Counted from the first letter of the stretch, positions 23,861-45,740 are shown. The stretch: 64,000 bases of DNA from Candidatus Marinacidobacterales bacterium (GCA_965237955.1 OZ250169.1:2240001-2304000); one strand, 5' to 3'. Made by a program: numbers and translations. The notes: generated by a model not told the origin, from the sequence alone.

Positions 23861-24850
23861 TCAGGTCGGTTGAAACGATCGCTTCAGGCGCTCCAGGCCC
23901 TCGTCAATGGTGACGGACGGTGCGTATCCCAAGTCACGTCGGGCGGCGGAGATGTCGAACCAGTGTGAAGTGGCGAGCTGATGAGCCACGAAACGGGTCA
24001 TGGGCGGCTCTTCCGTGATGGACAATACGCGGTAAACCGTCTCCATCATCCAGCCCGCCATCACGGCCAAGGGCACCGGGATCGATCGCGTGACCGGTGG
24101 CACTCCGGCCGCGGCGAGTATCTTGTTGATGAGCTCGAAGATCGGCAAGGGCTCGTCATTGGAGATGAAGTAGGGCTTGCCGGCACAGGCAGCCCCGGGG
24201 GTGAGTTTTTCTGCAGCGAGAATGTGCGCGTCGGCGGCATTGTCGATGTAGATCGAGTCCACGAGGCAAGGCCGCCGCCCGATCTTTCTCAGCTTGCCCG
24301 CCCGACCCCGGGCCACGATTCTCGGAACCAGATGGTTGTCCCCGGGCCCCCAGATGAGATGAGGCCTCAACGCAACGGTGGCGAGCTCCGGGGCGTTCGA
24401 TTCAAGCACCTTGCGTTCGGCAATGGCCTTCGTTTCGGGATAGGCGGTATCGTAGCGAGAGGCGTAAGGAACGGACTCGTCCACTCCTTCCAGGTCTCGA
24501 GCACCAAAAACCACGCTGGGCGTGCTGGTGTAGACCAACGTGCGCACGCCCTCGCGGCGGCAGGCGGTGATGACGTTTTCGGTGCCGGTCACATTCGTTG
24601 CGAAGTAGTCGGCATAAGGCCCCCAGACTCCTGCCTTGGCTCCGACGTGGAAGACCACGTCCACATCGCGAACGGCTTCGGACACGGCCTCGCTGTCGGC
24701 GAGGTCTCCCTGAACGTGCTCGACCCCGAGGGATTGGAGACCGGCGTACGTTCCCCGAGAAAAACTCCTGACCTCATCACCCCGCGCGCGGAGCTTCGTG
24801 GCGATAGCCCCTCCGAGAAAGCCTCCCCCGCCGGTGACCAGCGCCTTCAC
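23861..24850 (-). CDS. oleD: 2-alkyl-3-oxoalkanoate reductase (SDR/3-beta-HSD type)
   Basis: TGGGGFLG, YTSTPSV, YPETK, LRPHLIWGPGDN; operon position. Confidence 0.9.
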   Translation of the reverse strand: MKALVTGGGGFLGGAIATKLRARGDEVRSFSRGTYAGLQSLGVEHVQGDLADSEAVSEAVRDVDVVFHVGAKAGVWGPYADYFATNVTGTENVITACRREGVRTLVYTSTPSVVFGARDLEGVDESVPYASRYDTAYPETKAIAERKVLESNAPELATVALRPHLIWGPGDNHLVPRIVARGRAGKLRKIGRRPCLVDSIYIDNAADAHILAAEKLTPGAACAGKPYFISNDEPLPIFELINKILAAAGVPPVTRSIPVPLAVMAGWMMETVYRVLSITEEPPMTRFVAHQLATSHWFDISAARRDLGYAPSVTIDEGLERLKRSFQPT

Positions 24851-26481
24851 CGGAGACGCTCGGTGGCCCACACGGCGAGCTTCTCGCGGAAGATCTTCGA
24901 GTTGTGGCGGATGTCCACGGGCAGGCTCTTGTGGAAGAGCAGCGTGTGGATTTTTTTCGTGTGAGGCTGGGCGGCGCCGAGCTCCAGTAGCTCCTGGCGA
25001 AGATCGTTGGGCGCCCGCGCGTCCGTCTCGAGCTCCACGACGAGCACAGGCTCGATCTCAGAGTGGACCTTGGCACCCACCAGTGCCGAACGGTAAACGT
25101 CGGGGTGCGCGTTGAACACACCCTCGCACGGAATCGTGTAGTAGGTCTCGTCACCCGTGACCACGCGATGGGACTTGCGGCCGCAGAACCACAGCCGGCC
25201 CTCGTCGTCGAAGTAACCGAGATCGCCCATGCGGTGATAGAACTCGGCAGAGTCGGCTACGGCAATCTTAGCGAGCTTGGTTGCGGCCTCACGGTTGAAA
25301 TACGATCGCGTGACCACGGGGCCCTTCACCGCGATCTCTCCCACCTCACCCGGGGGCACGCGAAGGGCTTCACTCCACGCCGCGATGGGTTCGTCGTCGA
25401 TCCGAATCACCTCGACCGTCATGCCGTTCACCGGTCGGCCGACGCAAACCCCAGCGCCTTGATCCGTCTTTTTCCGGGTCTCCGCAAGAACTTCTGCGCT
25501 GCCAATCGAGCAAACCGGCAGGGATTCGGTGGCGCCATAGGGGGTGAAGACCTGCGCTTCTCCCGACAGCATCTTGGAGAAGCGCTCGAGCACCCGGGCC
25601 GGCATCGGTGCGCCGGCGGAAATGGCGCGCCTGAGCGACGGAAGCTTCACGCCATGGGCTTCGCCATAGCGCCCGACCTTGTCGATGAGGGCGGGCGAGC
25701 CGAACATGTTGGTGACGCCGTGGCGGAGGATCGGCTCGATGATGTTCTCCGGTTTCACTTGGGCCGGACGGGTGGTATCCATGTCGGGGATGACGGCGGA
25801 CATCCCCAGGGCGGGATCGAAAAGGGCGAAGAGAGGAAAGGTGGGCATGTCCTTTTCACCAGGCTCGATGGAGTAGGTCTCGCGGATCATCTCGACCTGG
25901 GCGGAGAAATTGCCATGGGTGTAGACGGCGCCTTTGGGGACACCCGTGCTTCCCGAGGTGAATAGAATGGCCGCGGTCTCGTCCGCCGCGGTGGATACCG
26001 GAACGTAGTCGCTGTCGGCCCGTCCCCGAAGGGAGACGTCCTCGAGCGAATGCCCGCCCCAAAACCACCGGCGTCCCACCGTGACCTTGGTGCGGATCAT
26101 CCCTCTCGCCCACCCCAAGAGGATGCGTGCGGCATGGGCCTGCGGAATGCCGATGAAGGCCTCGGGCTTTGCTTCGGTCAAGCAGACGCCGAGGTTCTTG
26201 AGGCCCATCCCCGGATCCACCACCACGGGGACCGCTCCGCACCTGAACAGAGCGAAGGTGAGGGTGAAGAAATCCAGACTGGGCTTGACCATCAGGACGG
26301 TGCGGACGCCGCGGCCGATTCCCACGGACTGAAGCCCGCGGGCAAGAGCTCCGCTGGCTTCGTCGAGCTCTTTGAACGTCAGAGATTCACCAGACCAAAG
26401 TGTCGCCGCAAGGCTGTCCGGCTGGCGGCGGGCCATGGCCGGCAAGTGGGAGGCGATGTTGACGCCGGCTTCGCGACTCAT
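24847..26481 (-). CDS. oleC: Olefin beta-lactone synthetase (AMP-binding)
   Basis: NIASHL, FTSGSTGVPKG, PTFPLFALF, TPYGATE, HRMGDLG, VDIRHNSKIFRE. Confidence 0.92.
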   Translation of the reverse strand: MSREAGVNIASHLPAMARRQPDSLAATLWSGESLTFKELDEASGALARGLQSVGIGRGVRTVLMVKPSLDFFTLTFALFRCGAVPVVVDPGMGLKNLGVCLTEAKPEAFIGIPQAHAARILLGWARGMIRTKVTVGRRWFWGGHSLEDVSLRGRADSDYVPVSTAADETAAILFTSGSTGVPKGAVYTHGNFSAQVEMIRETYSIEPGEKDMPTFPLFALFDPALGMSAVIPDMDTTRPAQVKPENIIEPILRHGVTNMFGSPALIDKVGRYGEAHGVKLPSLRRAISAGAPMPARVLERFSKMLSGEAQVFTPYGATESLPVCSIGSAEVLAETRKKTDQGAGVCVGRPVNGMTVEVIRIDDEPIAAWSEALRVPPGEVGEIAVKGPVVTRSYFNREAATKLAKIAVADSAEFYHRMGDLGYFDDEGRLWFCGRKSHRVVTGDETYYTIPCEGVFNAHPDVYRSALVGAKVHSEIEPVLVVELETDARAPNDLRQELLELGAAQPHTKKIHTLLFHKSLPVDIRHNSKIFREKLAVWATERLR

Positions 26482-27380
26482 GCCCGTTCGGCCTTCAGAA
26501 AGTCCCCGATAAGAGCAAGGGATTCGTCCCGGGCATCCTCGAGAACCAAGTGCCCGGCCTCGGGGAAAACTTCAACGTGGGCGGCGTCGAACCGGCGGGT
26601 CCATTCCGAGAGCACCTGATCGTCGAAGATAAAGTCCTTCTTTCCCCACAAGATGAGCATGGGCTTTTCACGAAGGGAGCTCAACGCATCGGAAACACCA
26701 GCCAGACACTCGAAGCTGGGATCCTCCCGATCAAGTGGAATGTCCTGAACGAACCGCAAAACGGCAATTCTATTCTTGTAAGAATCGTAGGGGGCAAGAT
26801 ACCCGGCTCTCTCCGAGCCGCTGAGACGGCGCTTCTTGCAACCGGTGATCAACCAGCCCCTGACAAAGCCGTTGAGACCTCGGACGAACAACGCGCCAAC
26901 TCGGGTGCTCCGGCAAAACCAGAGGGACCAAGGCAACACCTTGGTTCCGGGGATGGGAAAGGCCGCCGTGTTCATGACCACGAAGCGTGAGACCCGTTCT
27001 GGATGACGCGCGGCATAGCCCATTGCGATCACACCACCCCAGTCATGCATCACCAGTGTGATGTTCTGCGTGATGTCCAGGTCGTCGAGCCAGGCCTCCA
27101 CGTCGTCGATGCGGCGCTCGAGTCGGTATTCATAGCGCGCGTCATCGGGCTTGTCCGAGAGGCCGCAGCCAATGTGATCCGGTGCCAGGATGCGGTGGGA
27201 CCCGCTCAGATCCTTGATGAGCTCACGGTAGTAGAAGGACCAGCCGGGATTGCCGTGAAGACAAACCACGGGATCACCGGCGCCCTCGTCCACGTAGTGA
27301 AGCTTCAGACCGCCGCGATCATAGTAGCGACTCGTGAAGGGGTAGAGGCTTGCTACCACTCGAGCCCGAGCATCAGGCAA
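26478..27380 (-). CDS. oleB: Beta-lactone decarboxylase (haloalkane dehalogenase fold)
   Basis: HGNPGWSFYY, PDHIGCGLSDKP, HDWGG nucleophile, AGHLVLED. Confidence 0.9.
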   Translation of the reverse strand: MPDARARVVASLYPFTSRYYDRGGLKLHYVDEGAGDPVVCLHGNPGWSFYYRELIKDLSGSHRILAPDHIGCGLSDKPDDARYEYRLERRIDDVEAWLDDLDITQNITLVMHDWGGVIAMGYAARHPERVSRFVVMNTAAFPIPGTKVLPWSLWFCRSTRVGALFVRGLNGFVRGWLITGCKKRRLSGSERAGYLAPYDSYKNRIAVLRFVQDIPLDREDPSFECLAGVSDALSSLREKPMLILWGKKDFIFDDQVLSEWTRRFDAAHVEVFPEAGHLVLEDARDESLALIGDFLKAERA

Positions 27381-28408
27381 TTCAGACCACTCCCTATTCC
27401 CAAGAAGGCAACCTCGTTGCCGGATGCCAGGACGTCGCGCTCAGCGGCGAGCGCCGCGGTGATGGGCAACGACACCGTTCCCATGTTTCCCAGGTAGGCA
27501 AAGGTCGTGAAGTCTTTGTCCTCCGGTATTTGAAACGCTTGCAGGATGAACGCCTGGTGGGTCGATCCCACTTGATGGCAGATGGTCTTGTCGACATCCG
27601 CTTCGCTCCAGCCCATCTCACCCAAGAAGGCCTTCCACGTTTCGAGGCCCAGGGCCACGCCGTGTTCCAGAACGGCCACCGAGTCCGTGGACATGAGCTG
27701 GCCGTAGGTGGCCTGTCCGTCCTCTCGTCCTGTCTCCTCCATCCCCCACCGGCAGAGCCCGTAGTGCTCAGGCGCGGTGCGGGTCACCCCTCCCAGGAGC
27801 CGGTGGGTCGACGCGGAGCCGAAGGAGCCATCGGTCAGGAGCACTGCCGCGGCCCCGGAGCCGCCGGTGAGGGTGGCCACGGACATCTTGAAGAGCTCCA
27901 TGTCGGGCTTTTCGATCAACCGGTCGATCATGATGTTCACGATCTCCCGGGCGCTCTCGCAAGAGACCACGAGGCCGGCGCGGATCTGGCCGAGCTCGAT
28001 ACGGTTGGCGATGTCGAGCATCCCGTTCAGCACGCCGAGGCACGCATTGGAGAGGTCGTAGACGGCGGCGGCGGGGCTGACGCCGACACCATGAGCCACC
28101 CGGCAGGCGGTGGCCGGCTCGAAGCTTTCCCGGCACACGCCGGCATAAATGAGGACGTCGATATCTCCCGGCTTAACCGCCGACGAGTCCAGGGCGGCAC
28201 GGGCAGCGGTGATGGCAGACCGGGACAGAGGTGTGTCAGGGGCCCACCAGCGGCGTTCGGAGATGCCGGTCAGGGTTTCCAACTGCCCGGGTTGAAAATG
28301 GAGCGCCCGGTAGACCGGCGCCAGACGAGCCTCGAGCTCGGCGGAGGTGACTACGGTCGGCGGTAGCTCGTATCCGATGGTCTCCACAAAGACCTTCGTG
28401 TACTTCAA
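27353..28408 (-). CDS. oleA: Acyl-CoA head-to-head condensing thiolase
   Basis: EPATA, NACLG catalytic Cys, CHQVG, GNMG, GIGSGLN. Confidence 0.92.
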   Translation of the reverse strand: MKYTKVFVETIGYELPPTVVTSAELEARLAPVYRALHFQPGQLETLTGISERRWWAPDTPLSRSAITAARAALDSSAVKPGDIDVLIYAGVCRESFEPATACRVAHGVGVSPAAAVYDLSNACLGVLNGMLDIANRIELGQIRAGLVVSCESAREIVNIMIDRLIEKPDMELFKMSVATLTGGSGAAAVLLTDGSFGSASTHRLLGGVTRTAPEHYGLCRWGMEETGREDGQATYGQLMSTDSVAVLEHGVALGLETWKAFLGEMGWSEADVDKTICHQVGSTHQAFILQAFQIPEDKDFTTFAYLGNMGTVSLPITAALAAERDVLASGNEVAFLGIGSGLNCLMLGLEW

Positions 28409-31400
28409 GGGACCCCACCGCCCCAGGTTAACTTGAAACCGGTCACCTTATAGATGAGACGGCCGTCCACCGAAAGCGTACCGGAGGCCTCGACGGTGTG
28501 GCTCCGATCATCGATGGCGGTGACCACTACATCGGCGACCACGCGGCTGTCGGTGGGAAGGACTTGCCCCCGGTAGAGCCAGATGTGCTCCGAGCCGGGT
28601 GTCATCGCCTCGAGACGGCCGTCGGCCGGGGCTCCCCATCGCTCGACCGCAAAGACTTTCATGAGCTGGATCAGAGATTCCAGTCCCAAAGATCCGGGCC
28701 ACACGGGGTCTTGATAGAAGTGGGCCTTGAAGAACCAGGCCTCCGGGTTCACCAGTGTCGTCCCTCGCACGAAACCGAGGGCCTTGGGACCACCGCCAGG
28801 GACGCAGAGCTCCACGTCGGTCACCATCTGAAACCGTTCATCAGGAAAGGGCGCCGCAAGAGGTATTGAAAAAGCCCGGGCGCGGCGACGCTCGTCGTCA
28901 GTGGGGACGTAGGGAGTGTCATCGCGGATGCCGATCTGACTCGCGAGGGCGTCCTTGGAGAAGAAGCCGAAAGTGGTATCACCGGTGTAGACCGGCCCCT
29001 GGGCCGAGCGGATCTCGAAGTCGTAGTTCTGCACGATCATGCCCGCCGAGCTGGACACACCGGTGATCTTCACGACGGTGCTCAGCACACCGATGTCGCG
29101 GGTGAGAGGAACATGCTGCACACCTTGGCCTCCAAGGTTGCGGAACGAAAGATCGATGTCGCTGGTCAAGGCGGAGCCCAGATAAGCCGCCAGCCAACCG
29201 CAAGGCTGAAGGCCCACTTCCAGAAGCACGGCGAAGGGCATGGTGTCCTGGTGGTCGGCGTTGAAGAACCACGCATCTTGGGGGACTTCGTACTGCGCTT
29301 CGATGACTCCGCCGGCCACGAGCTTCCACGGCTCGGCGTCGATCTCGGTGATGCGGTCGAGGAACTGATAGGGCGGGCCGGGCAAACGCGCGATGACCCG
29401 GTCCCGGTCGAACACTTCGTAGGGCTCACCGAAAGCGTCCGAGGGCTTGCCGATGGCGAAGGCGGTGATGCGATCCGTATCGAAGATGGCCGGTTTGCCT
29501 GTACAGGCTGCGGCCCAAGTTCTCTCGAAAGCGTCTCGGTCGACGCCATCGAGCTCGAGAGACATGTTCGTGATCTCCACGATGGCCTTTCCGTCGGCAA
29601 CCATGAGAGCGTCCACGATTACGTAGGGCTTCGGCTCGTATCCGATTTCCTTCAAAGAGATTTCGTATTGCACTTTCTCGGTGGACGCAATCACCTGGCC
29701 GCGGCACTTCAGTTGGCCGGCAACGCCGGGGACGGGTTGGTAGGCAACTTGATCCCGGGAAGCCACCCATCCCATGCGGAGCAGGAAGACACGCAGCGTG
29801 TGGAGGCAGCACTCGTACATGAGCGTGCCGGGCATGACCATGTCGTCGCGGAAATGGCAGGTCAGGAACCAGTCGTCGGGGTAGATGTCCGCCTCGGCCT
29901 TGATGATCCCCAGGCCGAATCTTCCGCCCTCGGGATCGAGATGAAGCACCCGATCCAGGAGCTTCATGGTGCCGCCGGGAAGGGTGGCGGGATGCTGCAC
30001 GGGCAGGTTCGCGAAGGCCTCACCGAAGCAGGCCGCGAGATCGCCGTCGCGCAGAGCCTGGATGGCGTCGTCGTCGTAGGACTCCACCGACATTTCGACC
30101 AGAGAATGCCAGTCGTCGGGCCGCACGCCGGGCTGGAGCCCCAGGTCCATCTCCGTGTGAACGATGCCCTCGCCGGCATCGAGCTCTTCCGCGGTGAAGA
30201 AGCCGGCGCATCCCTTCGTCATGCTCAGAAGAGGCTCCCCATTCACCGTGGCCTCGAAGTTGAAGCGGAACAGATGGGTTTCGCCCTGCCGGAAGAACTC
30301 GTCAATGGCGATGTCGTAGTGAATGGTCTCGCCGGCGCGAGGAAGACTTCGATGGAAGGTCACTTCGGCGTCGAGGAGACGGTAGACGGCGAGGCCCCGG
30401 GTGACGAAGTCGATGCCCAAGTAGGCCGACAGAAAAAGATCCGCCTGCCCGGCTTCAACGGCGATGCAGGTGGGGATCCGGCCGCCATCGAGATACCAGG
30501 CCTCGGGATGGATGTCATGCTCGGTCACCACCCGGCCATGGCTCATGGATCTCGGCTCACCGTGGATTTCCATGATGCGATCGACGAGCATCAGTGGCTC
30601 GTCGGGTAGACGCACCCGGGAGGGATGGCTGTCCACCGCCGCGAATTCGGGGCCGAGGACCTTGGCGATGGAGCCGATGGCGAACTGCAGACAGGCGTCC
30701 CGATCCAGAGCCGGCGCCGGGGCGGTAGACACCGGGGCGTCGCCCGACAATTCCAGCAGGTCCAGCAAGCGGTTTTGAAAAAAGAAATTCTTCGCCATGC
30801 CGTTTTGAAGGGCTTCGCTCACGCGCAAAAAAGTGCCGTGCGCCTCGCCGGTACGAAGCAACGTTTGGTGGAGCCCCCCAATGATGTCGTCGTCGTCGTC
30901 GATACCGACGCTGGGCCGGAGGGTTACCGGGGCAGGCGCCTTGAAAGGCCGGCCTCCTACGATGACCTGCAGCGAGCGATCGCGGCTCGTCGTCTCGGGT
31001 GAGGCGGGATTGGCAGAGGCCACGAGCGCTTGCCACGAGCTATTGATGAAGGGCCCGAGATCCAAGGGGACCCTTTCGGCGATGAGGGTGGCCACGCCTC
31101 GGAGCAGGGAATTGATTTCGCCCTGCTCCGGGACGTTCATCGAGACCGCCCGGTGCGGCCGGTCCTCGAGAATCCTATCGATCATCCGACTGGCGGAAGC
31201 ACCGGGCCCCATCTCGACGAATATCCTCACGCCGTCGGCGTACGCCTTTTGCACCACGGCGGGAAAATCGAAACCGTGAAGGGCCTGGTCGGTGATGGAC
31301 TCCGCCGCCGTCTCCCGGGTGAGCTGGTAAGCCTCTCCCGCGGCCACCGAGTAGAAGCGCACGCCATCGGGAGGTGTTGTCTCGAAAAGATGCAGGTCGT

Positions 31401-34400
31401 GATACGCCTTTTGAACCTCACCGAGCACGTCGCAGTGAACGGTAGCAACGCCGTTGACGGGAACAAGGCTTGCCCCCAGGGACGAGGCAAAGCTGGTCAC
31501 GGCGGATCGGTTGCCGCCGATGACGCATTCATCGGAGGTGTTCGTGATCAACAGGTAAACATGCTTCTGGTTTGAGAGGGCGGCCTTCACCGCCTCGGCC
31601 GGCCGGTCCACGACGCCGACCAGCCAGTCCACCGGGATTCCGGGATCCAGACCCCATGAGCGCCGGGCGGCCTCGCAAGGACCGGCCAGGTCGCTGACGA
31701 AAAGGGACGACGCTTCCATCCGCGCCAGCATGTCGTCTCGCTTCCTCCAGGTTCGCGTGGAGAACAGGGCCGCCGACTCGCCGAGGCTGTATCCGACGAC
31801 CGCATCGGGGCCGACGCCCAAGGTCTTCATGACGTCGGTCACCACGGTTCCGAAGGTGACCTGGCCGAAGATGAGAGCGTGGTGGCGCTCGTCAACATTC
31901 TCAGGAGGCGCAGCCCCCCAAAACCACTCAGGCACCATCTGCCGTTTCAAGTAGCGATTTTCGCCGTCGTGACGATGGAGGATCTCGGGAAAACGCAGAG
32001 CGAGCTCACGGCCCATGCCGTGGTAGTGATTTCCCGACCCCGGATAAACGAAGGCAAGGCTTCCCTCATGCGCCAAGGGTTTGTTGCTCTCGAAAACACG
32101 CGTCTCGTCGACACCCTCGAGCAGAGGGCTGACGTCGGACCCTCGTGCGGCGACCACGGCAAGGCCGAGCTTCTTTCTGGGCTCGAGCGGGTTTTCGTGA
32201 TGCCAGCGCGCCGCTAGTCTTCGGGCATCATTTTCGGGCTGTGACTCCAGCCAGTCGCTGAGTCGGCGGCTCTCGGCGGCGAGTCCCACCTCATCATCCG
32301 CCTCGATGGCAAAGAGGGCGTCGCTCGCCGTTCCTATTGAGCATCTCGTGCCGGCTACTGGCTGGTGAAACTTATCCGACTCGTATTCTTCCAGCACCAC
32401 ATGACAGCAGTTGCCGTCGACACTCATGCCGCTGACACCGGCGCGCCGGGGCCCCTCGGCCCGGTTTCTCAACCAGTGCCGGGCGGGACCGGGGAGCACC
32501 CGGTTGTAGAGGGCGAGAGCAGTCTTCGCCAGCGATGCCATCCCCGACGCGGCGCCGGCGTGGCCTACCGCCTCCTTGACGCTTCCCGTCGCCGGCCGCT
32601 CGGCAAGAGTCGCAAGGTGTTTCTCCAAGGCGGATTTTTCAGCGCTATCTTCACAAGAAATGCCGCTTCCATGGGTCTCGATGTAGCTCACCGTCGAGGG
32701 ATCGATTCCCGACTCTTCGTACGCTCGGCCGAGCGCCGACTCATAGGCGGCAACGGTGGGTACCGTCGTCTCGACGCCACCACCGGTCGCGCTTCCCAAC
32801 CCCTTGATCACGGCATAGACCCGATCGCCATCGGCCTCGGCGTCCTCGAGACGCTTGAGCACGAAGGCCGCGCCACCTTCACCGAGTAGGGGTGTCCCAC
32901 GCTGCCCATCGGGCCGGGCCTCGTGGGCCGCCAGCACCGCCCTCACGTCACCGGCCAGATCCACGGCGCCCACCAGGGCTTGATCCACGCTTTTCGTCTG
33001 GAGCGCGCGCACCGCCGCTTCGAGGGCCTTGAAGCCCGAGGTCTCCTCGCTGGATAGAGTGAAGCTCGGACCACCGATCCGGAACTCCCGGGCCAGGCGG
33101 CTGGCAACGATGCCGCCGAGCGCACCCATGGTCCTGTTGGCGATCAGGGGTGGAGCCGCGGCGTCGGCAAGAGCGTCTCGCGACGGCTCCTCGGAACCGA
33201 GCACCGACCAGCGGAAGTTGAAGTTCGTCGTGTTGAGATCCAGCCCGATGCCGACGAACACCCCGGTGGAGAGTTTCTCTTCGGTACCGAGACCCGCATC
33301 GTCCATGGCGCCCTTGGCGACGGCGAGCATCAACGACTGCTGAGGCAGCATGTGCTCGAGCTCCACCGGCGGGATCCTGAACCGGTCCAGTGGCAGAGAG
33401 AGCTCGCGCATGAAATGGCCCTTGAACTCAGCCGCCGATTGTCCACGGTCGTTGAACGAAGACGACTCCTGAACGCCCCACCACAAACCGTTCTCCTCCG
33501 GATCCCGACGTTCGTCGCCGAGCACGTGCTGAGTGAAGGCCTCCAGTGACTCGAGCGATCCGAAGTGAGCGTCCATGCCGACAATGGCCACCGGCGAGTC
33601 CGCTCGCATGACCGGCGTTTGGACAAGGCTCTTATCCCCGGTCCACTCCTCCACCAGCACATGGGCGTTGATGCCGCCAAAGCCGAAAGCGCTCACCGCG
33701 GCGCGGCGGGGGGTGGAGCCGTCTCGGGTCTCCCAGGGCTCGGCCTCGGCGAGCACCTTGAACGGGCTCGCCTCGAGATCAAATTTCGCGCCGGCGCGAG
33801 AGAAGTTGGCCGTGGGAGGAAGGGTCCGAGCTTTCATGGCGAGGAGAACCTTGATGAATCCCGCGGCGCCGGCGCCGGTGAGCAGATGCCCCACGTTGGA
33901 CTTCACGCCCCCAATCACGCACCGGCCGGCCTGCCCGTCATTCCCGGCCCAGAGCTTCGTCAAGCTCTCGAGCTCCACGGCGTCGCCCACCGGTGTGCCC
34001 GTGGCGTGGCATTCGATGAGATCCACGTCCTGCGGTGACCAGCCCGACTGCTCATAGGCCGGCCGCATGGCCCTGAGCTGCCCCTCGGTGCTGGGCGCCA
34101 AGAGCTTCCCTTCCACGTCGTTGGAAAGACCAATGCCGGTGATGACACCGTGAATGTGGTCTCCGTTTCTCAGCGCATCTTCCAGGCGCTTGAGCACCAG
34201 CATGCCGGCGCCCTCTCCCACTATGAGGCCGTCGGCCTTTTGATCAAACGGTGAGCAGCGACCCGAAGTAGACAGCGCCCGCAACTGGGAGAAGCCCATC
34301 TGGGTGTAGAGACAGTCAGTGCGGCACAACCCTCCGGCGACCATGGCGTCCGTGCGTCCCGCGATCAGTTCATCGGAGGCGAGCTTCAGAGCGTAAAGGG

Positions 34401-34995: not shown

Positions 34996-35004
34996 GGGAG
35001 GAGC

Positions 35005-38000
35005 TTAGACCGACAGACGATTACGGGTGAACGCCTCACTAAGAGAGGTGTCCACGACGCATTCATAGTCCTCGAGACGGGCCACGAGACCGCCGTCGCT
35101 GTCGAGGAACTCCATGTCAGCCCGAGCCCAGGAGTTTCCGCTCTCGCTGATCTTTACGACGACAGAGACTCCGTCGCCAGGAAATGAGTCTCTGAACTGA
35201 CGATAGCGCCCGGCAAAGGTCGGCAACGAGGCGGCTCCGTGAATCTCCCGGCTCCAGACAATCATCAGTTGGAAGGCGACGTCTAGCGCCAGAGGATCGG
35301 CGAGCCACGCGCTTCTGAGTGGCTCGGCGAGCCAACGGGAGGGAGGAACCGTCGGGCCGGTGCGGGCGGTGATGGCGTCGTCGGAGATACCTTCCACCTC
35401 TTGGATACCCTGCAGAGCGGGCCCCTGGAAGAGCAAGTCACGATAGATCTCGTCGCTCGGCCGGTGGTAGGGATGAGTGTTGGTGTTTAGCCGGGCGCCG
35501 GAAGCCGCGGGCAGCTTGGACGCCAGGTGAATCGTCGCTCGGGCATGGTGGTGCTCCTTGCCCTCGGCGCCGGTGCTGCGAATCTCCACGGGAACACTGA
35601 GGAAGCCGAAGCCGAGGCCGTTCGTCTTTATGGCCTTGCCGGTGAGGACCTGGGTGGCGCGGGTTTCGCCGGCATCCAGGGTAAGTCCCTTGAGCACTCT
35701 GAGGTCGTCGAATCCATGGAAGCGGAGGCCGGGATTCTTGTGCACGGCGCCATGGGCCATCCACTCGACGATGAGAGCCAGGGGAACGACGGCCCGGCCA
35801 TTCAATACGTGATCCTTCAGTATCGGCACTTGCTTCACACCGATCTCTCTCTCGAAGGCCACACTCAAGCTCGCACCCTTTTCCGGCGGCGCGAGCATCA
35901 CGACCTCTACGGCGTCCCGGCTGCCATGGCGAATCTCGTCCACCAGCGCCCGGCTTCCTTCTTGAAGACCGATGAGCCCCACGCCCTCGTCATGGAACAC
36001 CTTGGCCAGGGCCGGAGTGACCATGCCACCGTCCCAGGGACCCCAACCCACGGAAACCACCCGGGCGGAAGGAATCCTCGCGGCCAGCCGCCACGCGGTC
36101 TTGTTGAGCACCTCGTTGGCCACGGCATAGTCCACCTGGCCTTTGCGACCGAAGCGTGCCGTGGACGACGAGAAGAAAACCACGACCTTGAGGGCTTCGA
36201 CGTCCAAAGCGGACAGGAGGGCGGTCATGCCGGCAACCTTCGTCCCGAAGACCCGGGAAAACTGCTCCTCAGTCTTGTTCTCGATGAGCTGATCCGCGAG
36301 CACGCCGGCCCCGTGTACGAGACCGGTGATGGGTCCGAGCTTCGTGCGAACGTCAGCAAGGATGTCCTCAACCGCCGCACCGTCGCGAACATCCACCGCG
36401 CGGTACTCCACATGCCCGGCCGTCCGTGCCACATCGTCAAGAGTCTGCCGAATCTCGCGATTCACCATGAGGCGTCGGTACTCTTCACCCACGTGGCGGG
36501 GCGAGGCACCGGCACCTGCCCGAGTTGCGATCTCTTTCTTGATGGCCGCTTCGGCGGTAAGGCCATGAAGCCATGCGGGCTCGGCCGTGGGCTCTGGACT
36601 TCTCCCAAGAAGCACGAGCTTCGATCCAAAAGCCCGGGCCAGCTCCCGGGCGGCCGCCGCTGTCACACCTCTGGCTCCGCCTGATATCACAATGACATCG
36701 TCCCTGCCGAGCTCGAACGACGATTCACCGGGAACGATGGCGCGGGGCGAGAGCTCCAGAGTGACCCGGCCCGTGTGGGTGAGACCCACTTCGAGCGGCC
36801 CGTCGAAGAAAATCTCATCCACGATGCCGGCGGCGAGCGAGGCCGCGTCATGGACCCCCGACGTAACATCCATGGCCTTGCAGTGCACCTCGGGCCACTC
36901 GTGGCTTGCCGTCTTGGCGAGACCGGCCAGTCCGCCGCTTTGACACCGCGTCTCGGGGCCCGTGCCCTTCAATCCGAAGGAGCCGTCTAGACGGGACACG
37001 GTGACGAAGACCGAGCCTCGCGAGCGGCCGCTCCGGCGCAGTGCAGAGCTCACCCGACTCAGGAGCGTCAGCGAGTCGGCCAGGAACTGGTCGCTGTCGG
37101 GACTCGCCGGGCCGACCACGACGAGGCCACCTAGCTCCGACGGTGGCTCCAGGGATGCTGCGTCTTCCAGCGCGACGAGACGGGGCTTTAGACCCAGTGC
37201 CTCCATGCGATCGGCGACCTCGGCCGAGAGGCCGGAGTCGTCACGGGAGATCAGAACGACGGCGTCAGAGGCCAGAGAGAACTTCTTGCGCTCCGCCGCC
37301 TCGTCCAGGACTGTGACAGCGAGGACACTTCTCTCTGGCGCCTTGGCTCGAGACACACTAGCCCGCCGCACGAGCTCGTCTACATCCACACCCTCGGCCG
37401 GAATCGATGAAGGCGTGATGCGGGCTTCTACGGCATCCGACAGCGTGTCCACCACGTTGCGCACCGTCCGCCAGGAGTTGATGATGCCTTGGGCGATCTC
37501 GGGCATGGAGGGTGTCTTGTCCCTAAGGAAGGAGAAGATCTCCGCGCGCTTGACCTGATCGATGCCCAGATCCGAACTGAGATCCATGTTCATGTGGAGG
37601 GAGTCCACCGGAAATCCCGTCTTGGCCGAAACCGCCGCCAAAACGCTCGAGCTGATTCTGAGGTCAACGGTGGAAACCGACGCCGGCGTGCCACCGTTCG
37701 TGTCACTCTCAGTGTCAGTGTCAGCAGCAGTCTCCGCTGCTTCAATGGGGGCCGGCGATGGAGCGGCCGCGCCGTCTTCTGTGAGGAAGGCCACGACCTG
37801 TCCAAGAGTACGCAGGGTGCCGAGGTGCTCGGGGCCCACGGACGGCGCCTCGGGAATGCGTTGCTGCAACGCCGAGAGAATTTCCACGCGCTTGATGGAG
37901 TCGATGCCCAAGTCCGAGTCCATCTCCATGTCCAGGTTCAAGATGTCGACTGGGTATCCGGTCTTCTCGGCGACCACCTCGAGGAGAACCGCCTCCACCT

Positions 38001-41000
38001 TGCCGGCATCGATTTTGGAAGGCTTGCTGGTTTCCCCGGGAGAAGTGGCTCTCGGCGTCTCGGCCGGCGGAGGCGTCTCGGCGAGAGTGGGTGCCATCGC
38101 CGGAGCCGCAACCTGTACCGGCGGCGGCACGGGCACGGGAACGGGTTGGGCTCGAGGCAGGGGTGACGGTGCCAGGCCCAGCCGTTGCTCGACGAGGCGT
38201 TGCTTGTGATCGACCAAGGATTGAAGCGTGCGCTGGGCCGACTCCTGGCCCTGAAGGAACTGCCGATGGAGGGCGGCGGTTTGCTCCTGCATCTTTTGAA
38301 GCGCGGCCATGTTCTCCTGTGTCATCCGTAGCGCGTCATCAATTACGGCGTGCCCAGCGCTGCCCGGAGCGGATGGCTGTCGCGGGACGGCGGCAGCGTT
38401 CTCTTTGGGGGGCTCGGGGGTTTTGGCGGGTTCGGGTGGTTGACGACTCATGGTGGTTCGCCTTGGGGCCGGCGCCTCCTGCCTCTTTTTTGGTTTGACA
38501 TAGTTGGCGCCGCTAAGGGTCACAGTGAGAGCCGGCTTGGAACGCTCGTCCGCAAACGCCAAGGATGACGCCTCGGGGTCCCACTGATTTAAATCGACGC
38601 GGAAGCCGTAGGCAGAAACGCGGGCCAGAGCCCGGGCGAGGTCGACGGCTCCGGAGCGCTTGCCCGACGATGCATCGAGGGCATGCGCCACATGTTCTTC
38701 GCCCTCGAGAATCGACCGCACCAAGCCGGTGAGCCGGCTCCCCGGGCCGACCTCGAGAAAGAAGCGGGCGCCGTCTCGGTGCAGGTTTTTGATCTCATTG
38801 ACGAACTCCACCGGCCGGACGAGCTGATCGGCGAGCAGCGCGGCAATGCCGGAAGCCTCATCGGGATACGTTTCGCCGGTGGCGTTGGCGTAAACCTTGC
38901 GCCGGGGCGCCGCGATGTCGGCCCGGCCGAGCTCGGTAGCAAAGGGCTCCGCGGCATCGACCACGAGAGTGCTGTGAAACGCCGCGGAGACTGGAAGACG
39001 CTTGCATCTAACACCGCGCCTCTTGAAGGCCTTCACCGCTTTTTGGATCTCGTCGGTAGGACCGGACAGAACGAACTGGGCCGGAGCATTCTTGTTGGCC
39101 ACCACCAGGGCGAGTGAATCCTCGACGACGATGGATTCGATGGTGCTCTCATCGGACTCCACCGCCAGCATGGCGCCGCGGTCGCCGTTGCCCTCGCTCA
39201 TGAGCCGCCCGCGGAGCATGGAAAGGACGCTCAGGGTCTGGGCGTCGAACACCTCCGCCGCTTGCAAAGCCACCAGCTCGCCGTAGCTGTGACCCGCCAC
39301 GGCGGCAGGCTCGAGACCGAACCTCTGGAGCACGCCCAGGGCGCCCACCGAGACGGCGCCGATGGCTGGCTGGGCCACCTCTGTGGCGCGCAGCGCTCGT
39401 TCTTGAGCCTCTTTCGTCTCATCGTCGAAAGCCGGGTGCGGATAGATGACATCGCTGAGCCGGTTGCCGGCCCTGTCCAGCCTGTTCATCCTGTCCAGGC
39501 TGTCCAGTAGCTCGGGGAACTGACAGGCCAGATCCCTGAGCATTCCCACGCACTGAGAGCCCTGGCCCGGGAACAGGAAGGCTAGAGATCCTACCGGCGC
39601 TCCGGTGCCGTAAAAGGCCCCGTCCGGTGTAGTCCACGAAGTCTTGTCGGTATGGGTCTTCAAGAGTGTGAGGCCACCCTCGAGACACTTTCTGAGTTGG
39701 GTTGGCTCCGTGGCCAGGATCAGCCGGTGCGCGGCCTCATGACGGAACGAGCTTCGGGCCCGGGCGGCCAGGCCTCGCAGGGCTCGTATATCAATGCCCT
39801 TCCGATCGGACGGAAAGGCCTGAGCGACGCTTACGAGCTCCTCTCGAGTATCGGCCGAAAATGCCAGGAGCACGGTTTCGCCGTCGAAGTCCGGAGCGGC
39901 CTTGGCCGCTTCCGCTTCTTCGAGAACGCAGTGGAAGTTGCTCCCGCCAAAACCGAAGGCGCTCACCGCGGCCCGCCTCGGATGATCTGCGGAGGAAAGC
40001 CAGGGCTTCTTCGTGGTGTTGACGTAAAAGGGTGAGCCCCCATTCCTGAGCACATCCAGCGGCTCGGTGACTTTCAAAGTCGGGGGAAGAACCTTGTGTT
40101 TCAGCGCCAGGGCGGCCTTCATCACGCCGGCGATTCCGGCGGCAGCCTTGGTGTGTCCCAGCTGCGATTTGACGCTGCCCAGCGCACACCATCCTCCGTC
40201 GGCATCGGCTTCTCGGAACACCGCGGAAAGGGATTCGACCTCGGTGGCGTCTCCCACCTTCGTGCCCGTGGCATGGGCCTCGATGAGCTCGATGCTCCGG
40301 GCCGAGATCCCGGCGCCGGCGTAGGCGTCTCTGAGAGCCTTGGCCTGGCCGCTGGCTACCGGCGCGTACACCGCCGTGCCCTTGCCGTCGCTGGACGAGC
40401 CTATTGATCGGATCACAGCGTGGATGGTGTCTTGGTCTTTGCGAGCATCGGCCAGCCGCTTGAGCACCACGACGCCGAGGCCCTCACCGAGAATCGTGCC
40501 GTCCGCTGACTTGTCGAAAGGACGGCAATCGCCGGTAGGCGAGAGCGCCGGCGTCTTGCTGAAGCACATGTACATAAAAATGTCGTTGAAGGTGTCCATG
40601 CCTCCGGCAAGCACCATGTCAGAGCGTCCGGAGGCGAGCTCCAGGCCGGCAAGGTGAAGGGCGCCCAGTGAGCTGGCACAGGCCGCGTCCACCACGCAGT
40701 TGGTGCCACCGAGGTCGAGCCGGTTGGCGATGCGCCCGGCCACGACATTGCCCAAGAGTCCCGGAAAGGAGTTTTCCTGCCACTCCACATAGTTGTCGGA
40801 AATCTTCTGGACCACCGTGTCGGTAAGGTCGTCGGCGACACCGGATTCCTTCAGCGCCCGCCGCCACAGGGGGTGTCCCAAGCGGGCCCCCAGAGGAATC
40901 ACCAGCTCCAGCGTGCCCGTGACACCGAGAATCACGCTGGTCCGATCCCGATCGAAGCTTCCCTTCTCCCCATAGCCCGCATCTTCCAGAGCTTGGCTCG

Positions 41001-41319
41001 CCACCATGAGTCCGAGCAGCTGGGTCGTGTCCGTGGCCTCTATGTCGTTGGGCGCGATGCCGAAGGCAAGGGGGTCGAAGGCGACCGGTGACAGAAATCC
41101 ACCGCGACGGGCATAGGTGCGATCCGGTGCCTTGGGATCGTCGTCGAAGAAGTCCTCCACGTTCCAGTGGGTGGAAGGAATGTCGGTTATGGTGTCGACA
41201 CCGTTTTTGAGATTGGCCCAATAAGCCCCCACGTCATCGGCCTTGGGGAAGAGACAGGCCATGCCGACGATGGCCAGGGGCTCTTGTTGCATCCGAGTGT
41301 TACTGGACTTAGTGGACAC
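35005..41319 (-). CDS. pfaA: PUFA-synthase-like PfaA: KS-MAT-ACP-ACP*-KR-DH
   Basis: DAACASS, HATGT, GHTKAAAG; GHSYG; ACP DLGIDSIK; degenerate ACP DLGIDQVK; KR GGARGVT; DH DHVLNGRAVVP; GTG 41319 with GGAGG RBS. Confidence 0.92.
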   Translation of the reverse strand: MSTKSSNTRMQQEPLAIVGMACLFPKADDVGAYWANLKNGVDTITDIPSTHWNVEDFFDDDPKAPDRTYARRGGFLSPVAFDPLAFGIAPNDIEATDTTQLLGLMVASQALEDAGYGEKGSFDRDRTSVILGVTGTLELVIPLGARLGHPLWRRALKESGVADDLTDTVVQKISDNYVEWQENSFPGLLGNVVAGRIANRLDLGGTNCVVDAACASSLGALHLAGLELASGRSDMVLAGGMDTFNDIFMYMCFSKTPALSPTGDCRPFDKSADGTILGEGLGVVVLKRLADARKDQDTIHAVIRSIGSSSDGKGTAVYAPVASGQAKALRDAYAGAGISARSIELIEAHATGTKVGDATEVESLSAVFREADADGGWCALGSVKSQLGHTKAAAGIAGVMKAALALKHKVLPPTLKVTEPLDVLRNGGSPFYVNTTKKPWLSSADHPRRAAVSAFGFGGSNFHCVLEEAEAAKAAPDFDGETVLLAFSADTREELVSVAQAFPSDRKGIDIRALRGLAARARSSFRHEAAHRLILATEPTQLRKCLEGGLTLLKTHTDKTSWTTPDGAFYGTGAPVGSLAFLFPGQGSQCVGMLRDLACQFPELLDSLDRMNRLDRAGNRLSDVIYPHPAFDDETKEAQERALRATEVAQPAIGAVSVGALGVLQRFGLEPAAVAGHSYGELVALQAAEVFDAQTLSVLSMLRGRLMSEGNGDRGAMLAVESDESTIESIVVEDSLALVVANKNAPAQFVLSGPTDEIQKAVKAFKRRGVRCKRLPVSAAFHSTLVVDAAEPFATELGRADIAAPRRKVYANATGETYPDEASGIAALLADQLVRPVEFVNEIKNLHRDGARFFLEVGPGSRLTGLVRSILEGEEHVAHALDASSGKRSGAVDLARALARVSAYGFRVDLNQWDPEASSLAFADERSKPALTVTLSGANYVKPKKRQEAPAPRRTTMSRQPPEPAKTPEPPKENAAAVPRQPSAPGSAGHAVIDDALRMTQENMAALQKMQEQTAALHRQFLQGQESAQRTLQSLVDHKQRLVEQRLGLAPSPLPRAQPVPVPVPPPVQVAAPAMAPTLAETPPPAETPRATSPGETSKPSKIDAGKVEAVLLEVVAEKTGYPVDILNLDMEMDSDLGIDSIKRVEILSALQQRIPEAPSVGPEHLGTLRTLGQVVAFLTEDGAAAPSPAPIEAAETAADTDTESDTNGGTPASVSTVDLRISSSVLAAVSAKTGFPVDSLHMNMDLSSDLGIDQVKRAEIFSFLRDKTPSMPEIAQGIINSWRTVRNVVDTLSDAVEARITPSSIPAEGVDVDELVRRASVSRAKAPERSVLAVTVLDEAAERKKFSLASDAVVLISRDDSGLSAEVADRMEALGLKPRLVALEDAASLEPPSELGGLVVVGPASPDSDQFLADSLTLLSRVSSALRRSGRSRGSVFVTVSRLDGSFGLKGTGPETRCQSGGLAGLAKTASHEWPEVHCKAMDVTSGVHDAASLAAGIVDEIFFDGPLEVGLTHTGRVTLELSPRAIVPGESSFELGRDDVIVISGGARGVTAAAARELARAFGSKLVLLGRSPEPTAEPAWLHGLTAEAAIKKEIATRAGAGASPRHVGEEYRRLMVNREIRQTLDDVARTAGHVEYRAVDVRDGAAVEDILADVRTKLGPITGLVHGAGVLADQLIENKTEEQFSRVFGTKVAGMTALLSALDVEALKVVVFFSSSTARFGRKGQVDYAVANEVLNKTAWRLAARIPSARVVSVGWGPWDGGMVTPALAKVFHDEGVGLIGLQEGSRALVDEIRHGSRDAVEVVMLAPPEKGASLSVAFEREIGVKQVPILKDHVLNGRAVVPLALIVEWMAHGAVHKNPGLRFHGFDDLRVLKGLTLDAGETRATQVLTGKAIKTNGLGFGFLSVPVEIRSTGAEGKEHHHARATIHLASKLPAASGARLNTNTHPYHRPSDEIYRDLLFQGPALQGIQEVEGISDDAITARTGPTVPPSRWLAEPLRSAWLADPLALDVAFQLMIVWSREIHGAASLPTFAGRYRQFRDSFPGDGVSVVVKISESGNSWARADMEFLDSDGGLVARLEDYECVVDTSLSEAFTRNRLSV

Positions 41320-43057
41320 GTAGTTCCTCCACGGGCCGCAGCCGGTACTCGCTCCACGAGCGCAGTGGTTGGACGCCCTGGCTGCGAAGGGCATTGATAC
41401 GGGTCAGCAAGGAGGCGCCGTGCAAGATGTTCAACGCAACGGTGACGACACGGCGGTGTTCCGGCTCCTCCAGGAACGATCCCTTTACCCATCCATTGAA
41501 TGCCCCCATCGAGGGCCCGCACCAGATCTGGTAGTCGATGGTCCGGGAGGGATCGCCGGCATTGGCCCAGTTCGACGACTGGCCGAGATACCAGCGGAAG
41601 ACCAAGGCCATCTTGTGTTTGGGATCCTTCGCGGCTCGCTCGAGCTGGGCCGGATCCCTCTCAGCGAAGAAGTCGCGGCATTGGCTCCACACCGCGTTCA
41701 CCGGTGCTCGGAAGTAATTTTTTTCCAGCGCCGCCATATCGGTCTCGGGAATGGACTCCAGACTTTCACACGCCCGGTAAAGTTCGTAGAGCTTCTGGGC
41801 TCGCATGGCGAAGAAGGTGCCGCGCTTGAGCACCTGTACCTTCACACCCATCTCGAACATGTCGGCCGCTGGCGCCATGGCGACGTCGGCCTGCTCGGCG
41901 GCGGCGAGCATCGTGCGCACGGTCTGAGACGTACCCGCCTCGACGCAGGACTGGTTGACCGAGCCAGTGAGTATGTAGGCGGCCCCCATGGAAAGGGCCG
42001 CAGCGGCTGAAATCGGAGTGGAGATGCCTCCGGCGGCTCCCACCCGCAGGGTCTCACTGTAACCATGACGTTCCTGCATCTGATCCCGGAGCGCCATCAG
42101 CGCAGGTATGAGGGCCAGGGCCGGCTGGTTGTCGGTGTGACCGCCGGAGTCGGCCTCGGCGGTGATGTCCTGGGCCATGGGAATGCGGGCGGCCAGACGG
42201 GCCTGCTCCTCGGTGATGTTTCCTGTGTCGACGAGAGGCTTCAACAGACGCTCCGGTGGTGGGGAAAAAAACTTCGTGGCGACTTCTATGCGAGACACCT
42301 TGGCGATGAGCCGGTTCGGCGTCACGATGCGTCCCTGGGAATCTTCGTGAATCCCGTGGACGCGGTAGCGGACCACAGGAAGAGTGAGATCCAGATAGGC
42401 CGAGGCCGAGGCCAGGTGCACGCCGCGCTGAATGTAGAGCTCGACCACGGCGGACTCCAGACCGGGCTCGTTGGGGCTGTGGATGAGGTTGAAGCCGTAC
42501 GGCCGTCCCTCCAGAGAATGAGACAGGCGGTCGATGGCGGCTTCCACCGCCTCGAGAGGCAGGCCGGCAGCGCCGAAGAAGCCAAGCATGCCGGCGCGGC
42601 CCATGGCCTCCACGATTTCGGCCGAGCCGATCCCATTGGCCATGGCACCGGCGATGTAGGGATAGCGCAAGCCATGGTCTAAGAGGAATCCCGGGTCACC
42701 AAGGTGCTCGGGAGGGCTGGCCGGGGAGTAGCCGATTATGGGAAACGCTTCACCCTCGGTGACACCAGCTCCTAGAATCGCAGTGCCGCCGGTCACTCGG
42801 GCGCACGCGCCCCGATCCGAGATCAGGATCACGGGTCGTCCGGTATCCTGCACGGCCTCCCTGATGGCGTCTGGCCGGCGGTCCACACGGGAGGCGGGGC
42901 CCGTCCACCAGCCCAAAGGAGCCATGGACTTTGCCGAGGTATCGCTATCGCTCGAGCGATCCGGCTCCGAAACGAGCGCGTGAGCGCGATGCTCGTGGAT
43001 CGGCGCGTATCGCTGGTTCTTTGAGGCCACTCCGGTTCTCGCGCGTTCGCTGGTCAC
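41309..43057 (-). CDS. pfaD: PfaD-family enoyl reductase
   Basis: YIAGAMANGI, AEADSGGHTD, GAAGGI, APAADMFEMG, QIWCGPSMGAFN; start codon uncertain. Confidence 0.95.
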   Translation of the reverse strand: MTSERARTGVASKNQRYAPIHEHRAHALVSEPDRSSDSDTSAKSMAPLGWWTGPASRVDRRPDAIREAVQDTGRPVILISDRGACARVTGGTAILGAGVTEGEAFPIIGYSPASPPEHLGDPGFLLDHGLRYPYIAGAMANGIGSAEIVEAMGRAGMLGFFGAAGLPLEAVEAAIDRLSHSLEGRPYGFNLIHSPNEPGLESAVVELYIQRGVHLASASAYLDLTLPVVRYRVHGIHEDSQGRIVTPNRLIAKVSRIEVATKFFSPPPERLLKPLVDTGNITEEQARLAARIPMAQDITAEADSGGHTDNQPALALIPALMALRDQMQERHGYSETLRVGAAGGISTPISAAAALSMGAAYILTGSVNQSCVEAGTSQTVRTMLAAAEQADVAMAPAADMFEMGVKVQVLKRGTFFAMRAQKLYELYRACESLESIPETDMAALEKNYFRAPVNAVWSQCRDFFAERDPAQLERAAKDPKHKMALVFRWYLGQSSNWANAGDPSRTIDYQIWCGPSMGAFNGWVKGSFLEEPEHRRVVTVALNILHGASLLTRINALRSQGVQPLRSWSEYRLRPVEELRVH

Positions 43058-43100
43058 ATTATTCCGTCTCGCTCGCGGCTTGACGGCCGGTTAGGCCACC

Positions 43101-43762: not shown

Positions 43763-43839
43763 TGGCGCGCCCTAGGCGATTCGAACACCTGACCTACAGA
43801 TTCGTAGTCTGTCGCTCTATCCAGCTGAGCTAAGGGCGC
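43763..43839 (-). tRNA. tRNA-Arg(ACG)
   Basis: GCGCCCT/AGGGCGC acceptor, anticodon arm ACAGA-CTACGAA-TCTGT, GTTCGAA T-loop, encoded CCA. Confidence 0.97.
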
Positions 43840-45718: not shown

Positions 45719-45740
45719 ACGAAGTATGAAGGAGCATCTG

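Follow-up and report, generated by a model that had tools for sequence, protein, structure and literature searches.

Gene content of the pfa-ole block

We analysed a stretch of 64,000 nucleotides from a Candidatus Marinacidobacterales bacterium (GCA_965237955.1, OZ250169.1:2240001-2304000; this whole stretch is called the window), and in particular the gene block at positions 23861-43057, where genes of a polyunsaturated fatty acid (PUFA) synthase (pfa) stand next to genes of head-to-head olefin synthesis (ole). The block consists of seven open reading frames (ORFs) on the minus strand with zero internal stops, named from Pfam and NCBIfam matches as pfaD-pfaA-pfaBC-oleA-oleB-oleC-oleD. With the most likely start codons, five of the six junctions overlap by 4-11 nt and the remaining one is a gap of 9 nt. 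An earlier note on this DNA had proposed these gene identities, their order and their tight coupling, and all are borne out by the seven open frames, the intact catalytic motifs and the overlapping junctions. The note was also right in taking the host for an acidobacterium, its same-family genomes being Acidobacteria or 'Candidatus Marinacidobacterales'. Below, G000 denotes the genome carrying the window, other G-numbers denote compared genomes and L-numbers compared loci.

The first gene, pfaD (41309-43057, minus strand, as are all features of the block), encodes a flavin mononucleotide (FMN) enoyl-acyl carrier protein (ACP) reductase and scores 634.6 bits against TIGR02814 (cut-off 449). Its start is uncertain, and residues 1-45 are poorly conserved, with a ratio of nonsynonymous to synonymous substitution rates (dN/dS) of about 1.0 compared to 0.17 for residues 46-575. 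This and all further dN/dS values are Nei-Gojobori estimates over pooled pairs of eight related genomes (G000 and seven relatives of its family that carry the block), and such pairs are not independent. The gene overlaps pfaA (35005-41319; TIGR02813, 1447 bits against a cut-off of 1010) by 11 nt, with pfaA starting at GTG 41319 behind GGAGG; the listed start of the pfaA ORF at 41394 is probably too long. By its Pfam domains PfaA is built as ketosynthase (KS), malonyl-acyltransferase (MAT), two ACP domains of which the second is aberrant, ketoreductase (KR) and polyketide synthase (PKS)-type dehydratase (DH), and the motifs DAACASS, EAHATGT, GHTK, GHSYG, YAVAN and HVLNGRAVVP are found in it.

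After the 9-nt gap follows the fusion gene pfaBC (28405-34995), with the Pfam architecture KS-CLF-AT-(DH'-DH)x2, in which the chain length factor (CLF) is without Cys and the dehydratases are FabA-type with the His motifs CHF/AHF. The best match in the Protein Data Bank is the KS-CLF chain of a PUFA synthase (6riw, E 4.7e-139). The PfaB model reaches 115 bits on PfaBC, below its cut-off of 144; the acyltransferase (AT) domain carries the PfaB-type GYSLG serine motif and the downstream His, which PMC12895367 ties to terminal acyl transfer.

The stop of pfaBC is overlapped by 4 nt by oleA (27353-28408; PRK09258, 475 bits against a cut-off of 285), the head-to-head Claisen condensing thiolase. 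Its product aligns over the full length to the solved OleA-type structure 3row and retains the catalytic residues Glu97, Cys123, His278 and Asn308. The next gene, oleB (26478-27380), is a predicted beta-lactone decarboxylase of the haloalkane-dehalogenase fold with HGNP, the HDWG motif of the Asp nucleophile and the C-terminal catalytic His; it overlaps oleA by 7 nt if it starts at GTG 27359 and by 28 nt if it starts at TTG 27380. Overlaps of 4 nt then join oleB to oleC (24847-26481), a predicted beta-lactone synthetase with 754 bits against PRK09274 (cut-off 478), and oleC to oleD (23861-24850, starting at GTG 24850), a predicted 2-alkyl-3-oxoalkanoate reductase with GxxGxxG and YxxxK motifs. 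Active-site motifs are present in both KS, both AT, the KR, the PKS-type DH, both FabA-type DHs and all four Ole proteins, as judged from the motifs themselves and, for part of these proteins, from alignment to solved structures.

Neither a phosphopantetheinyl transferase (PPTase) nor a hotdog thioesterase gene lies inside the block, in agreement with what had been noted before, and no acyltransferase gene for lipid incorporation was found there. No pfaT-like gene is linked to the block; the three PF13279 matches of the genome all lie elsewhere. The sole PF01648 match in the 8.1-Mb genome is a HetI/Sfp-like PPTase (G000:C1:4033254-4033802, with the match at 4033425) 1.75 Mb from the block, which may serve both the type II ACP and PfaA. 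Its homologues occur in 17 of the 18 same-family genomes, including those without the cluster (the G008 match is only 36% identical). According to PMC6463001, pfaE can lie apart from the pfa genes.

Relation to Type I clusters and the probable product

Judged from its sequence, the cluster is of the Geobacter/planctomycete kind called Type I. In Shulse and Allen 2011 (PMC3098273), this type is reported for Geobacter, Pelobacter, Desulfuromonas and Gemmata and proposed to feed olefin synthesis, and Acidobacteria are listed there only under Type R. The layout defined in that text is present, with pfaD (enoyl reductase, ER) first, pfaA as KS-MAT-ACPn-KR and a fused pfaBC as KS-CLF-AT-DH2, and the KS of PfaA groups with the Geobacter/Gemmata type, apart from Type A/B. 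In place of multiple tandem active ACPs, PfaA has one serine-bearing and one serine-less ACP domain. The traits of Type A/B synthases of eicosapentaenoic acid (EPA) and docosahexaenoic acid (DHA), namely a separate pfaB, 4-6 ACPs and a gammaproteobacterial KS clade, are absent.

The KS-AT part of PfaA is 57-60% identical to that of Geobacteraceae, up to 62% to that of planctomycetes and Elusimicrobiota, and 40-42% to that of Shewanella, Colwellia and Moritella; the C-terminal part is 46-47% identical to Geobacteraceae PfaA. In the KS-AT tree, PfaA falls in a clade of 22 rows from Geobacteraceae, planctomycetes, Elusimicrobiota and Verrucomicrobiota (support 98 in the SH-like approximate likelihood-ratio test, SH-aLRT), within which the tree does not single out a nearest sister. 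OleA presents the same picture, its nearest named relatives at 66-68% being Geobacteraceae (66-67%), planctomycetes and Verrucomicrobiia. The KS and OleA phylogenies that the earlier note had called for thus both place the enzymes with those of Geobacter/planctomycete Type I. Vertical descent across Acidobacteriota was considered and rejected: the eight acidobacterial PfaA rows as one clade fail the approximately unbiased (AU) test (p 1.9e-5; LG+G4, quick tree, 28 rows). Clusters of this kind have therefore been acquired repeatedly by the phylum, or exchanged.

The gene order from pfaD to oleD is that of Geobacter (Citrifermentans) bemidjiensis Bem, which according to the review text of Yoshida et al. 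2016 (PMC4882568) is a C31:9 producer with a tandem array of pfaD, A, B, C, oleA, B, C, D and pfaE; the pfaBC fusion is a further likeness. It differs from our cluster in the linked pfaE, the PPTase here being encoded in trans across the family, and in its five Ser-ACPs, compared to one Ser-ACP and one serine-less ACP here; our host is an acidobacterium. Shewanella pfaABCDE with oleABCD (PMC6463001) encodes the enzymes found here and presumably shares the chemistry, with OleA drawing on Pfa ACPs. Its pfaB and pfaC are separate, however, and it has 4-6 ACPs, co-produces EPA and carries the pfaT thioesterase; its PfaA KS-AT is only about 41% identical and belongs to a separate clade. Xanthomonas campestris oleABCD shares the Ole chemistry, and the catalytic residues of OleA align with the solved Xanthomonas-type enzyme. 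Xanthomonas and lipstatin-type oleACD systems use type II fatty acids or have no oleB (PMC7064751), whereas here a megasynthase precedes oleA, and oleA, oleB, oleC and oleD stand together. The layout is therefore not new, and what we report extends a published type to a marine acidobacterial family. The earlier note had held that its reading would suffer if a near-identical characterised cluster were widespread in the lineage, and this is largely what we found, the order being published for a C31:9 producer (PMC4882568) and present in 7 of 18 family genomes.

The seven genes form an intact, tightly coupled block. We regard it as likely that its product is an olefin joined head to head, long and polyunsaturated, with C31:9 or a closely related compound the probable identity; its PfaA carries one Ser-ACP and one serine-less ACP, the latter predicted to be a structural or docking element. 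The polyunsaturated olefin as such is likely by analogy with the characterised clusters; for exactly C31:9 the same analogy gives a slight preference. The mechanism can be outlined from characterised homologues (PMC6463001, PMC11962503 and PMC12895367). A single Sfp-type PPTase encoded elsewhere would prime the serine-bearing ACP. As expected from the domain content and from known PUFA synthases, the MAT would load malonyl, the two KS domains would alternate and the KR would reduce, with the PKS-type DH and PfaD giving saturated steps and the FabA-type DHs giving cis double bonds, so that an oxygen-independent, methylene-interrupted chain such as 16:4 might result. Following the Shewanella work, OleA would take two chains from the ACP and condense them, OleD would reduce the keto acid, OleC would close the beta-lactone and OleB would decarboxylate it to the alkene, which would reside in the membrane. 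That Pfa chains feed the Ole condensation had been proposed in the earlier note, and this pathway logic is sound; Allemann et al. 2019 (PMC6463001) showed that OleA links the pfa and ole pathways, probably through the ACPs, whose bound Pfa chains it would take directly.

Two other products have to be weighed. The synthase could mainly supply polyunsaturated acyl chains for phospholipids or another lipid via its PfaB-type AT, the Ole branch being minor or conditional. The retained GYSLG serine and downstream His, tied to terminal acyl transfer as cited above, are consistent with this, and Photobacterium profundum SS9, which has adjacent pfa and ole operons, makes EPA and has no detectable hydrocarbon according to PMC6463001. 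We consider this improbable, however. The start of oleA overlaps the pfaBC stop, and in degree of conservation all four ole genes equal the pfa genes. Production of C31:9 is reported for the Type I prototype. The block is without an acyltransferase gene that would serve lipid incorporation, and FabF/FabZ-type genes of the genome's own are present together with three desaturase matches. Alternatively, the end product could be a beta-lactone or beta-hydroxy acid (a secreted inhibitor or surfactant) instead of a hydrocarbon, since lactone pathways likewise use OleA, OleC and OleD (PMC7064751) and the OleB activity is predicted here from sequence. The earlier note had left hydrocarbon and beta-lactone side by side; the hydrocarbon part remains likely and the lactone part appears weak. 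An intact oleB is present in 8 of 8 genomes (G000 and all seven relatives), with a dN/dS of 0.16; in G000 it is coupled by overlaps of 4-7 nt and keeps its nucleophile and His motifs. The lactone products described by Smith et al. 2020 (PMC7064751) are tied to clusters without oleB. In the flanks of the relatives, the block is accompanied by no transporter or tailoring gene. With OleB intact an olefin is the likelier product, and a lactone is highly improbable.

Several observations weigh against the olefin as outlined. Chain length and double-bond number are unreadable from sequence. The OleC models NF045786 and NF045785 give 682 and 659 bits, under their cut-offs of 900 and 850, and the best models for OleD (NF042422 and NF042423) give 453 and 447 bits, under 580; these best matches are Ole models built on Xanthomonas and Shewanella with lineage-specific cut-offs. 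The P. profundum case applies here as well. PfaA has one Ser-ACP where Geobacter PfaA has five, so the output may be low. Finally, contigs from RNA libraries that fall on the cluster come from mixed relatives (212 of 372 are less than 90% alike in run X3) and do not show expression of this copy; the three marine-sediment runs are labelled metatranscriptomic, with 5-9% of words, and their short contigs give neither strand nor level, thus speaking neither for nor against expression. If the olefin is made, the family may be a further source of C31-type polyenes in sediments.

The serine-less second ACP domain of PfaA

The first ACP domain of PfaA (ACP1; 37771-38007, PF00550) is its only serine-bearing carrier, with the motif LGIDSIKR (Ser codon 37897-37899) and Ser in 8 of 8 genomes. 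The second (ACP2; 37429-37668) reads LGIDQVKR, with a Gln codon at 37555-37557; the earlier note had missed this absence of the phosphopantetheine serine. The serine is replaced by Gln, His or Arg (CAG, CAC, CGC) in 8 of 8 genomes and likewise in all 13 proteins of the clade that figure among the closest relatives in the database (overlapping partially with the genomes). Environmental contigs of runs X1, X3 and X4 have a changed third base in the Gln codon (window 37555), giving His, which is the same alternation as among the genomes. Among the 114 other proteins of the KS-relative set, 108 are all-Ser, 4 have no ACP hit, 1 is cut off and 1 has Trp in a degenerate last ACP. A search with the ACP region gave 119 of 119 non-clade proteins as all-Ser with 5-13 ACPs each; as this search is biased to many-ACP proteins, the count was redone on the nearest relatives by KS, which include 9 full-length proteins with a single ACP and 49 with two normal ACPs. 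Because the 9 single-ACP relatives share the clade, a single active ACP is a variant within Type I and no break with the family. Against 1.84 billion representatives, an ACP2 profile scored 170 bits on the clade's own domain and 78 on the next best among the top 150, in a ranking that favours many-ACP proteins. No ACP2-like domain was found among 400 sampled Acidobacteriota.

Identity between ACP2 and ACP1 amounts to 39-49%; in all-Ser arrays, by contrast, the final ACP shares 64-100% of its residues with a neighbouring one (n=96 and 119). Its dN/dS is 0.21 (95% column bootstrap 0.14-0.30) compared to 0.48 (0.38-0.58) for the linkers; ACP1, AT and DH have 0.11, 0.19 and 0.21, respectively. All 80 of its columns are gap-free in eight genomes and 47 are invariant, and the flanking linkers have 14-25% gaps. 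AlphaFold2 models both domains as four-helix ACPs on a disordered linker, with predicted local distance difference test (pLDDT) values of 77-92 for ACP1 and 80-89 for ACP2, and both match solved ACPs. ACP2 is less acidic (D+E 9 and K+R 8, compared to 13 and 6 in ACP1). ACP2 thus cannot take phosphopantetheine at the usual site; it has grown apart from ACP1 in sequence, and the constraint on it today is as tight as that on AT and DH.

We predict that ACP2 is a structural or docking element rather than a carrier. Hayashi et al. 2016 (PMC5067506) found that a PUFA synthase with an added Ser-to-Ala ACP reached 170-300% of the output of its shorter parent, compared to about 3% with unrelated inserts. 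The mechanism is open, as is, more generally, the question of whether tandem ACPs act as more carriers or have a structural role. The engineered synthases resemble the present case in having a chain-incapable, ACP-folded domain beside an active ACP in subunit A; they are 5-ACP arrays with a measured effect, and ours is a natural 2-ACP array, at about 40% identity, known from sequence alone. By this analogy, ACP2, barred from phosphopantetheine and yet conserved, would aid flux through ACP1, a view to which we incline with some reserve. It is a more tentative possibility that the clade made a duplicated ACP into a dedicated non-carrier which docks partners or OleA beside ACP1 and so raises flux or steers chains to the olefin, possibly altering the hydrocarbon.

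ACP2 may instead be a dead relic of a two-ACP ancestor, kept since its deletion or unfolding would disturb PfaA, with the pathway otherwise as we favour it. That some full-length relatives manage with one ACP and others have two normal ones, that the substituting residue varies and that dN/dS is twice that of ACP1 all fit a relic, and the value of 0.21 could partly reflect a domain that needs only to stay folded. On the other hand, a relic would hardly be expected to remain indel-free over 80 columns between gapped linkers, or to have among its invariant columns Val, Ala and Phe at +1, +4 and +7, which are foreign to Ser-type ACPs; it should be deletable, judging by the single-ACP relatives, yet it is retained in all 13 clade proteins. 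We give the relic a serious chance, though somewhat short of even.

Another origin would be borrowing from the Thr-type tandem ACPs of acidobacterial Type R-like megasynthases instead of derivation from ACP1. Of 50 Thr-type ACPs, 49-50 agree with ACP2 at +1, +4 and +7, positions occupied in Ser-type ACPs by Ile (997 of 998), Val (993) and in most cases Leu (876), respectively, and ACP2 is equidistant (38-39%) from the two groups. However, an ACP tree (74 columns) joins ACP2 and the Thr-type domains only as long branches, the helix III region has no match, and a motif scan found no Thr-type ACP in G000, nor was one present in the three family loci examined. Borrowing therefore appears distinctly improbable as the origin of ACP2; the three helix II residues common to both may reflect convergence or borrowing.

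The serine-less conserved ACP2 is the one fresh feature of the cluster and may be a natural case of the inactive ACPs that raise yield in engineered PUFA synthases; we found no paper on natural pseudo-ACPs in PUFA synthases, subscription papers lying outside the search. Should the docking reading be true, ACP2 would be the first counterpart in nature to the unexplained gain from engineered inactive ACPs, and no system would be simpler for finding that mechanism than this array of two domains. A natural array of one active and one dummy ACP under purifying selection makes the tandem-ACP question testable with few constructs and could inform PUFA and hydrocarbon engineering.

The Thr-type arrays are an observation in their own right. 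Other Acidobacteriota carry KS-AT-KS/CLF-ACPn-KR-DH megasynthases of about 2900-3500 aa, Type R-like, whose tandem ACPs have Thr for Ser (LGIDTVKQAE). We counted 50 such domains in 17 genomes (L119-L137, L145, L146) and, among the 150 proteins of the ACP2-profile search, 71 domains in 15 proteins, one protein combining four Thr ACPs and one Ser ACP. Either the Thr is phosphopantetheinylated or the arrays are not carriers. The available part of PMC3098273 does not mention them and our literature search found no paper on them; they are possibly more surprising than the pfa-ole finding itself.

Selection, spread and movement of the block

All catalytic domains and Ole proteins have dN/dS values of 0.11-0.21, and linkers have 0.4-1.0, which indicates that all seven genes are under purifying selection. 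An OleA orthologue at 86-92% identity is present in 7 of 18 same-family genomes (three other genera); it was found neither in the other 11, several of which are incomplete, nor in 36 genomes from elsewhere in the order. All seven relatives have the complete gene order at 75-91% protein identity, and the block is therefore not a chance arrangement. An OleA-like gene at E 1e-40 occurs in 7 of 400 sampled Acidobacteriota and in 32 of 400 genomes of the class (five candidates scored per genome). Of those seven Acidobacteriota, the order of all seven genes recurs in G113, G139 and G407 and that of pfaD-pfaA-pfaBC-oleA-oleB in G081, G435 and G222 have oleABCD without pfa within the 40 kb examined, and in G233 oleA lies at a contig end. 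In G060 the block order is reversed, oleABCD being placed before pfaD-pfaA-pfaBC; two Elusimicrobiota loci have pfaA-pfaBC-oleABCD. The OleA of G060 belongs to a second, divergent type (36-40% identity), which was also seen in another family of the class, in 15 of 18 genomes. A literature search on Acidobacteria with oleA, olefin or PUFA synthase returned nothing on this lineage.

Synonymous distances (dS) differ between the block and the housekeeping controls rpoB and proS, the only two used (RsgA and ProB were found in 2 and 1 of 5 genomes). Between G000 and G008 the block has a dS of 0.25-0.27 where rpoB has 1.05 and proS 1.37, i.e. the block is far more alike; between G012 and G015 it has 0.53-0.57 where rpoB has 0.16 and proS 0.27, and the block is less alike. 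Judged by ProS (79%), G006 is the closest genome; it is collinear with the window over the first 21.8 kb and then beyond a tRNA-Arg gene. Between these parts it has about 46 kb of other DNA, and its own pfa-ole copy lies on another contig, at a site whose counterpart in G000 holds insertion sequence (IS) elements and no pfa or ole remnant. These contrasts in distance and site show, as far as sequence comparison can, that the block and a leader of about 400 nt move among genera of the family and land at different sites, an instance of intergeneric movement of a 19-kb lipid block. The earlier alternative of a product under selection or a recent acquisition thus resolves into both, with low dN/dS on catalytic parts and lateral movement between genera.

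The non-coding leader or promoter region that travels with the cluster (43058-43450, minus strand) is 75-79% identical upstream of pfaD in G015, G018, G005 and G012. A structured RNA in it was considered and rejected: 4 of 103 predicted pairs covary, the covariation term is unfavourable (+5.8) and there is no Rfam hit. The tRNA-Arg(ACG) gene (43763-43839, minus strand), missed before, ends 705 nt upstream of pfaD and is given as context; its 3' side is the variable region that houses the cluster in G000. The block has 63.7% GC compared to 60.2% (top 0.2% of 19.2-kb windows), and GC at third codon positions (GC3) of 0.70-0.82 against a genome median of 0.75. The last 14-25 nt of the tRNA-Arg gene occur once in the genome, so that no attachment (att) repeat was found, and no integrase was found among the 50 window ORFs scanned; the site is marked as variable by synteny only. 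With normal GC3 and no att repeat, a classical recent foreign island is rejected, and transfer within the family is still supported. A hidden accessory gene travelling with the block was likewise rejected, as flanks differ among relatives; the one shared upstream gene, TrmO-like and directly before the pfaD leader, is confined to three genomes of genus g6 (L020:14078-14914, L027:5356-6156 and L029:5100-6509).

In the surroundings, frameshifts split a sulfatase gene (7115-8762) and a copper amine oxidase gene (18540-21399). The indels are missing from close strains in runs X5 and X8, and X4 is the same as the window at the amine oxidase sites, which points to strain-specific decay. Beside decaying neighbours, the intact 19 kb add to the indications of use. 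Contigs in X4 and X5 span the oleD border. A spermidine-synthase-like gene (50533-52962) and a pyrroloquinoline quinone (PQQ)-dehydrogenase-like gene ending at 23853 also look split or truncated. IS110 (45726-47129) and IS630 (53320-54432) transposases have 11 and 38 near-identical full-length copies in the genome, respectively, and the IS110 element is missing from the collinear site of G006. From 54445 to 63990, a co-directional series of genes for four GT4 glycosyltransferases, two methyltransferases, a PMT-like membrane protein and a polysaccharide-deacetylase-like protein makes up what is, by its gene content, a predicted surface polysaccharide locus.

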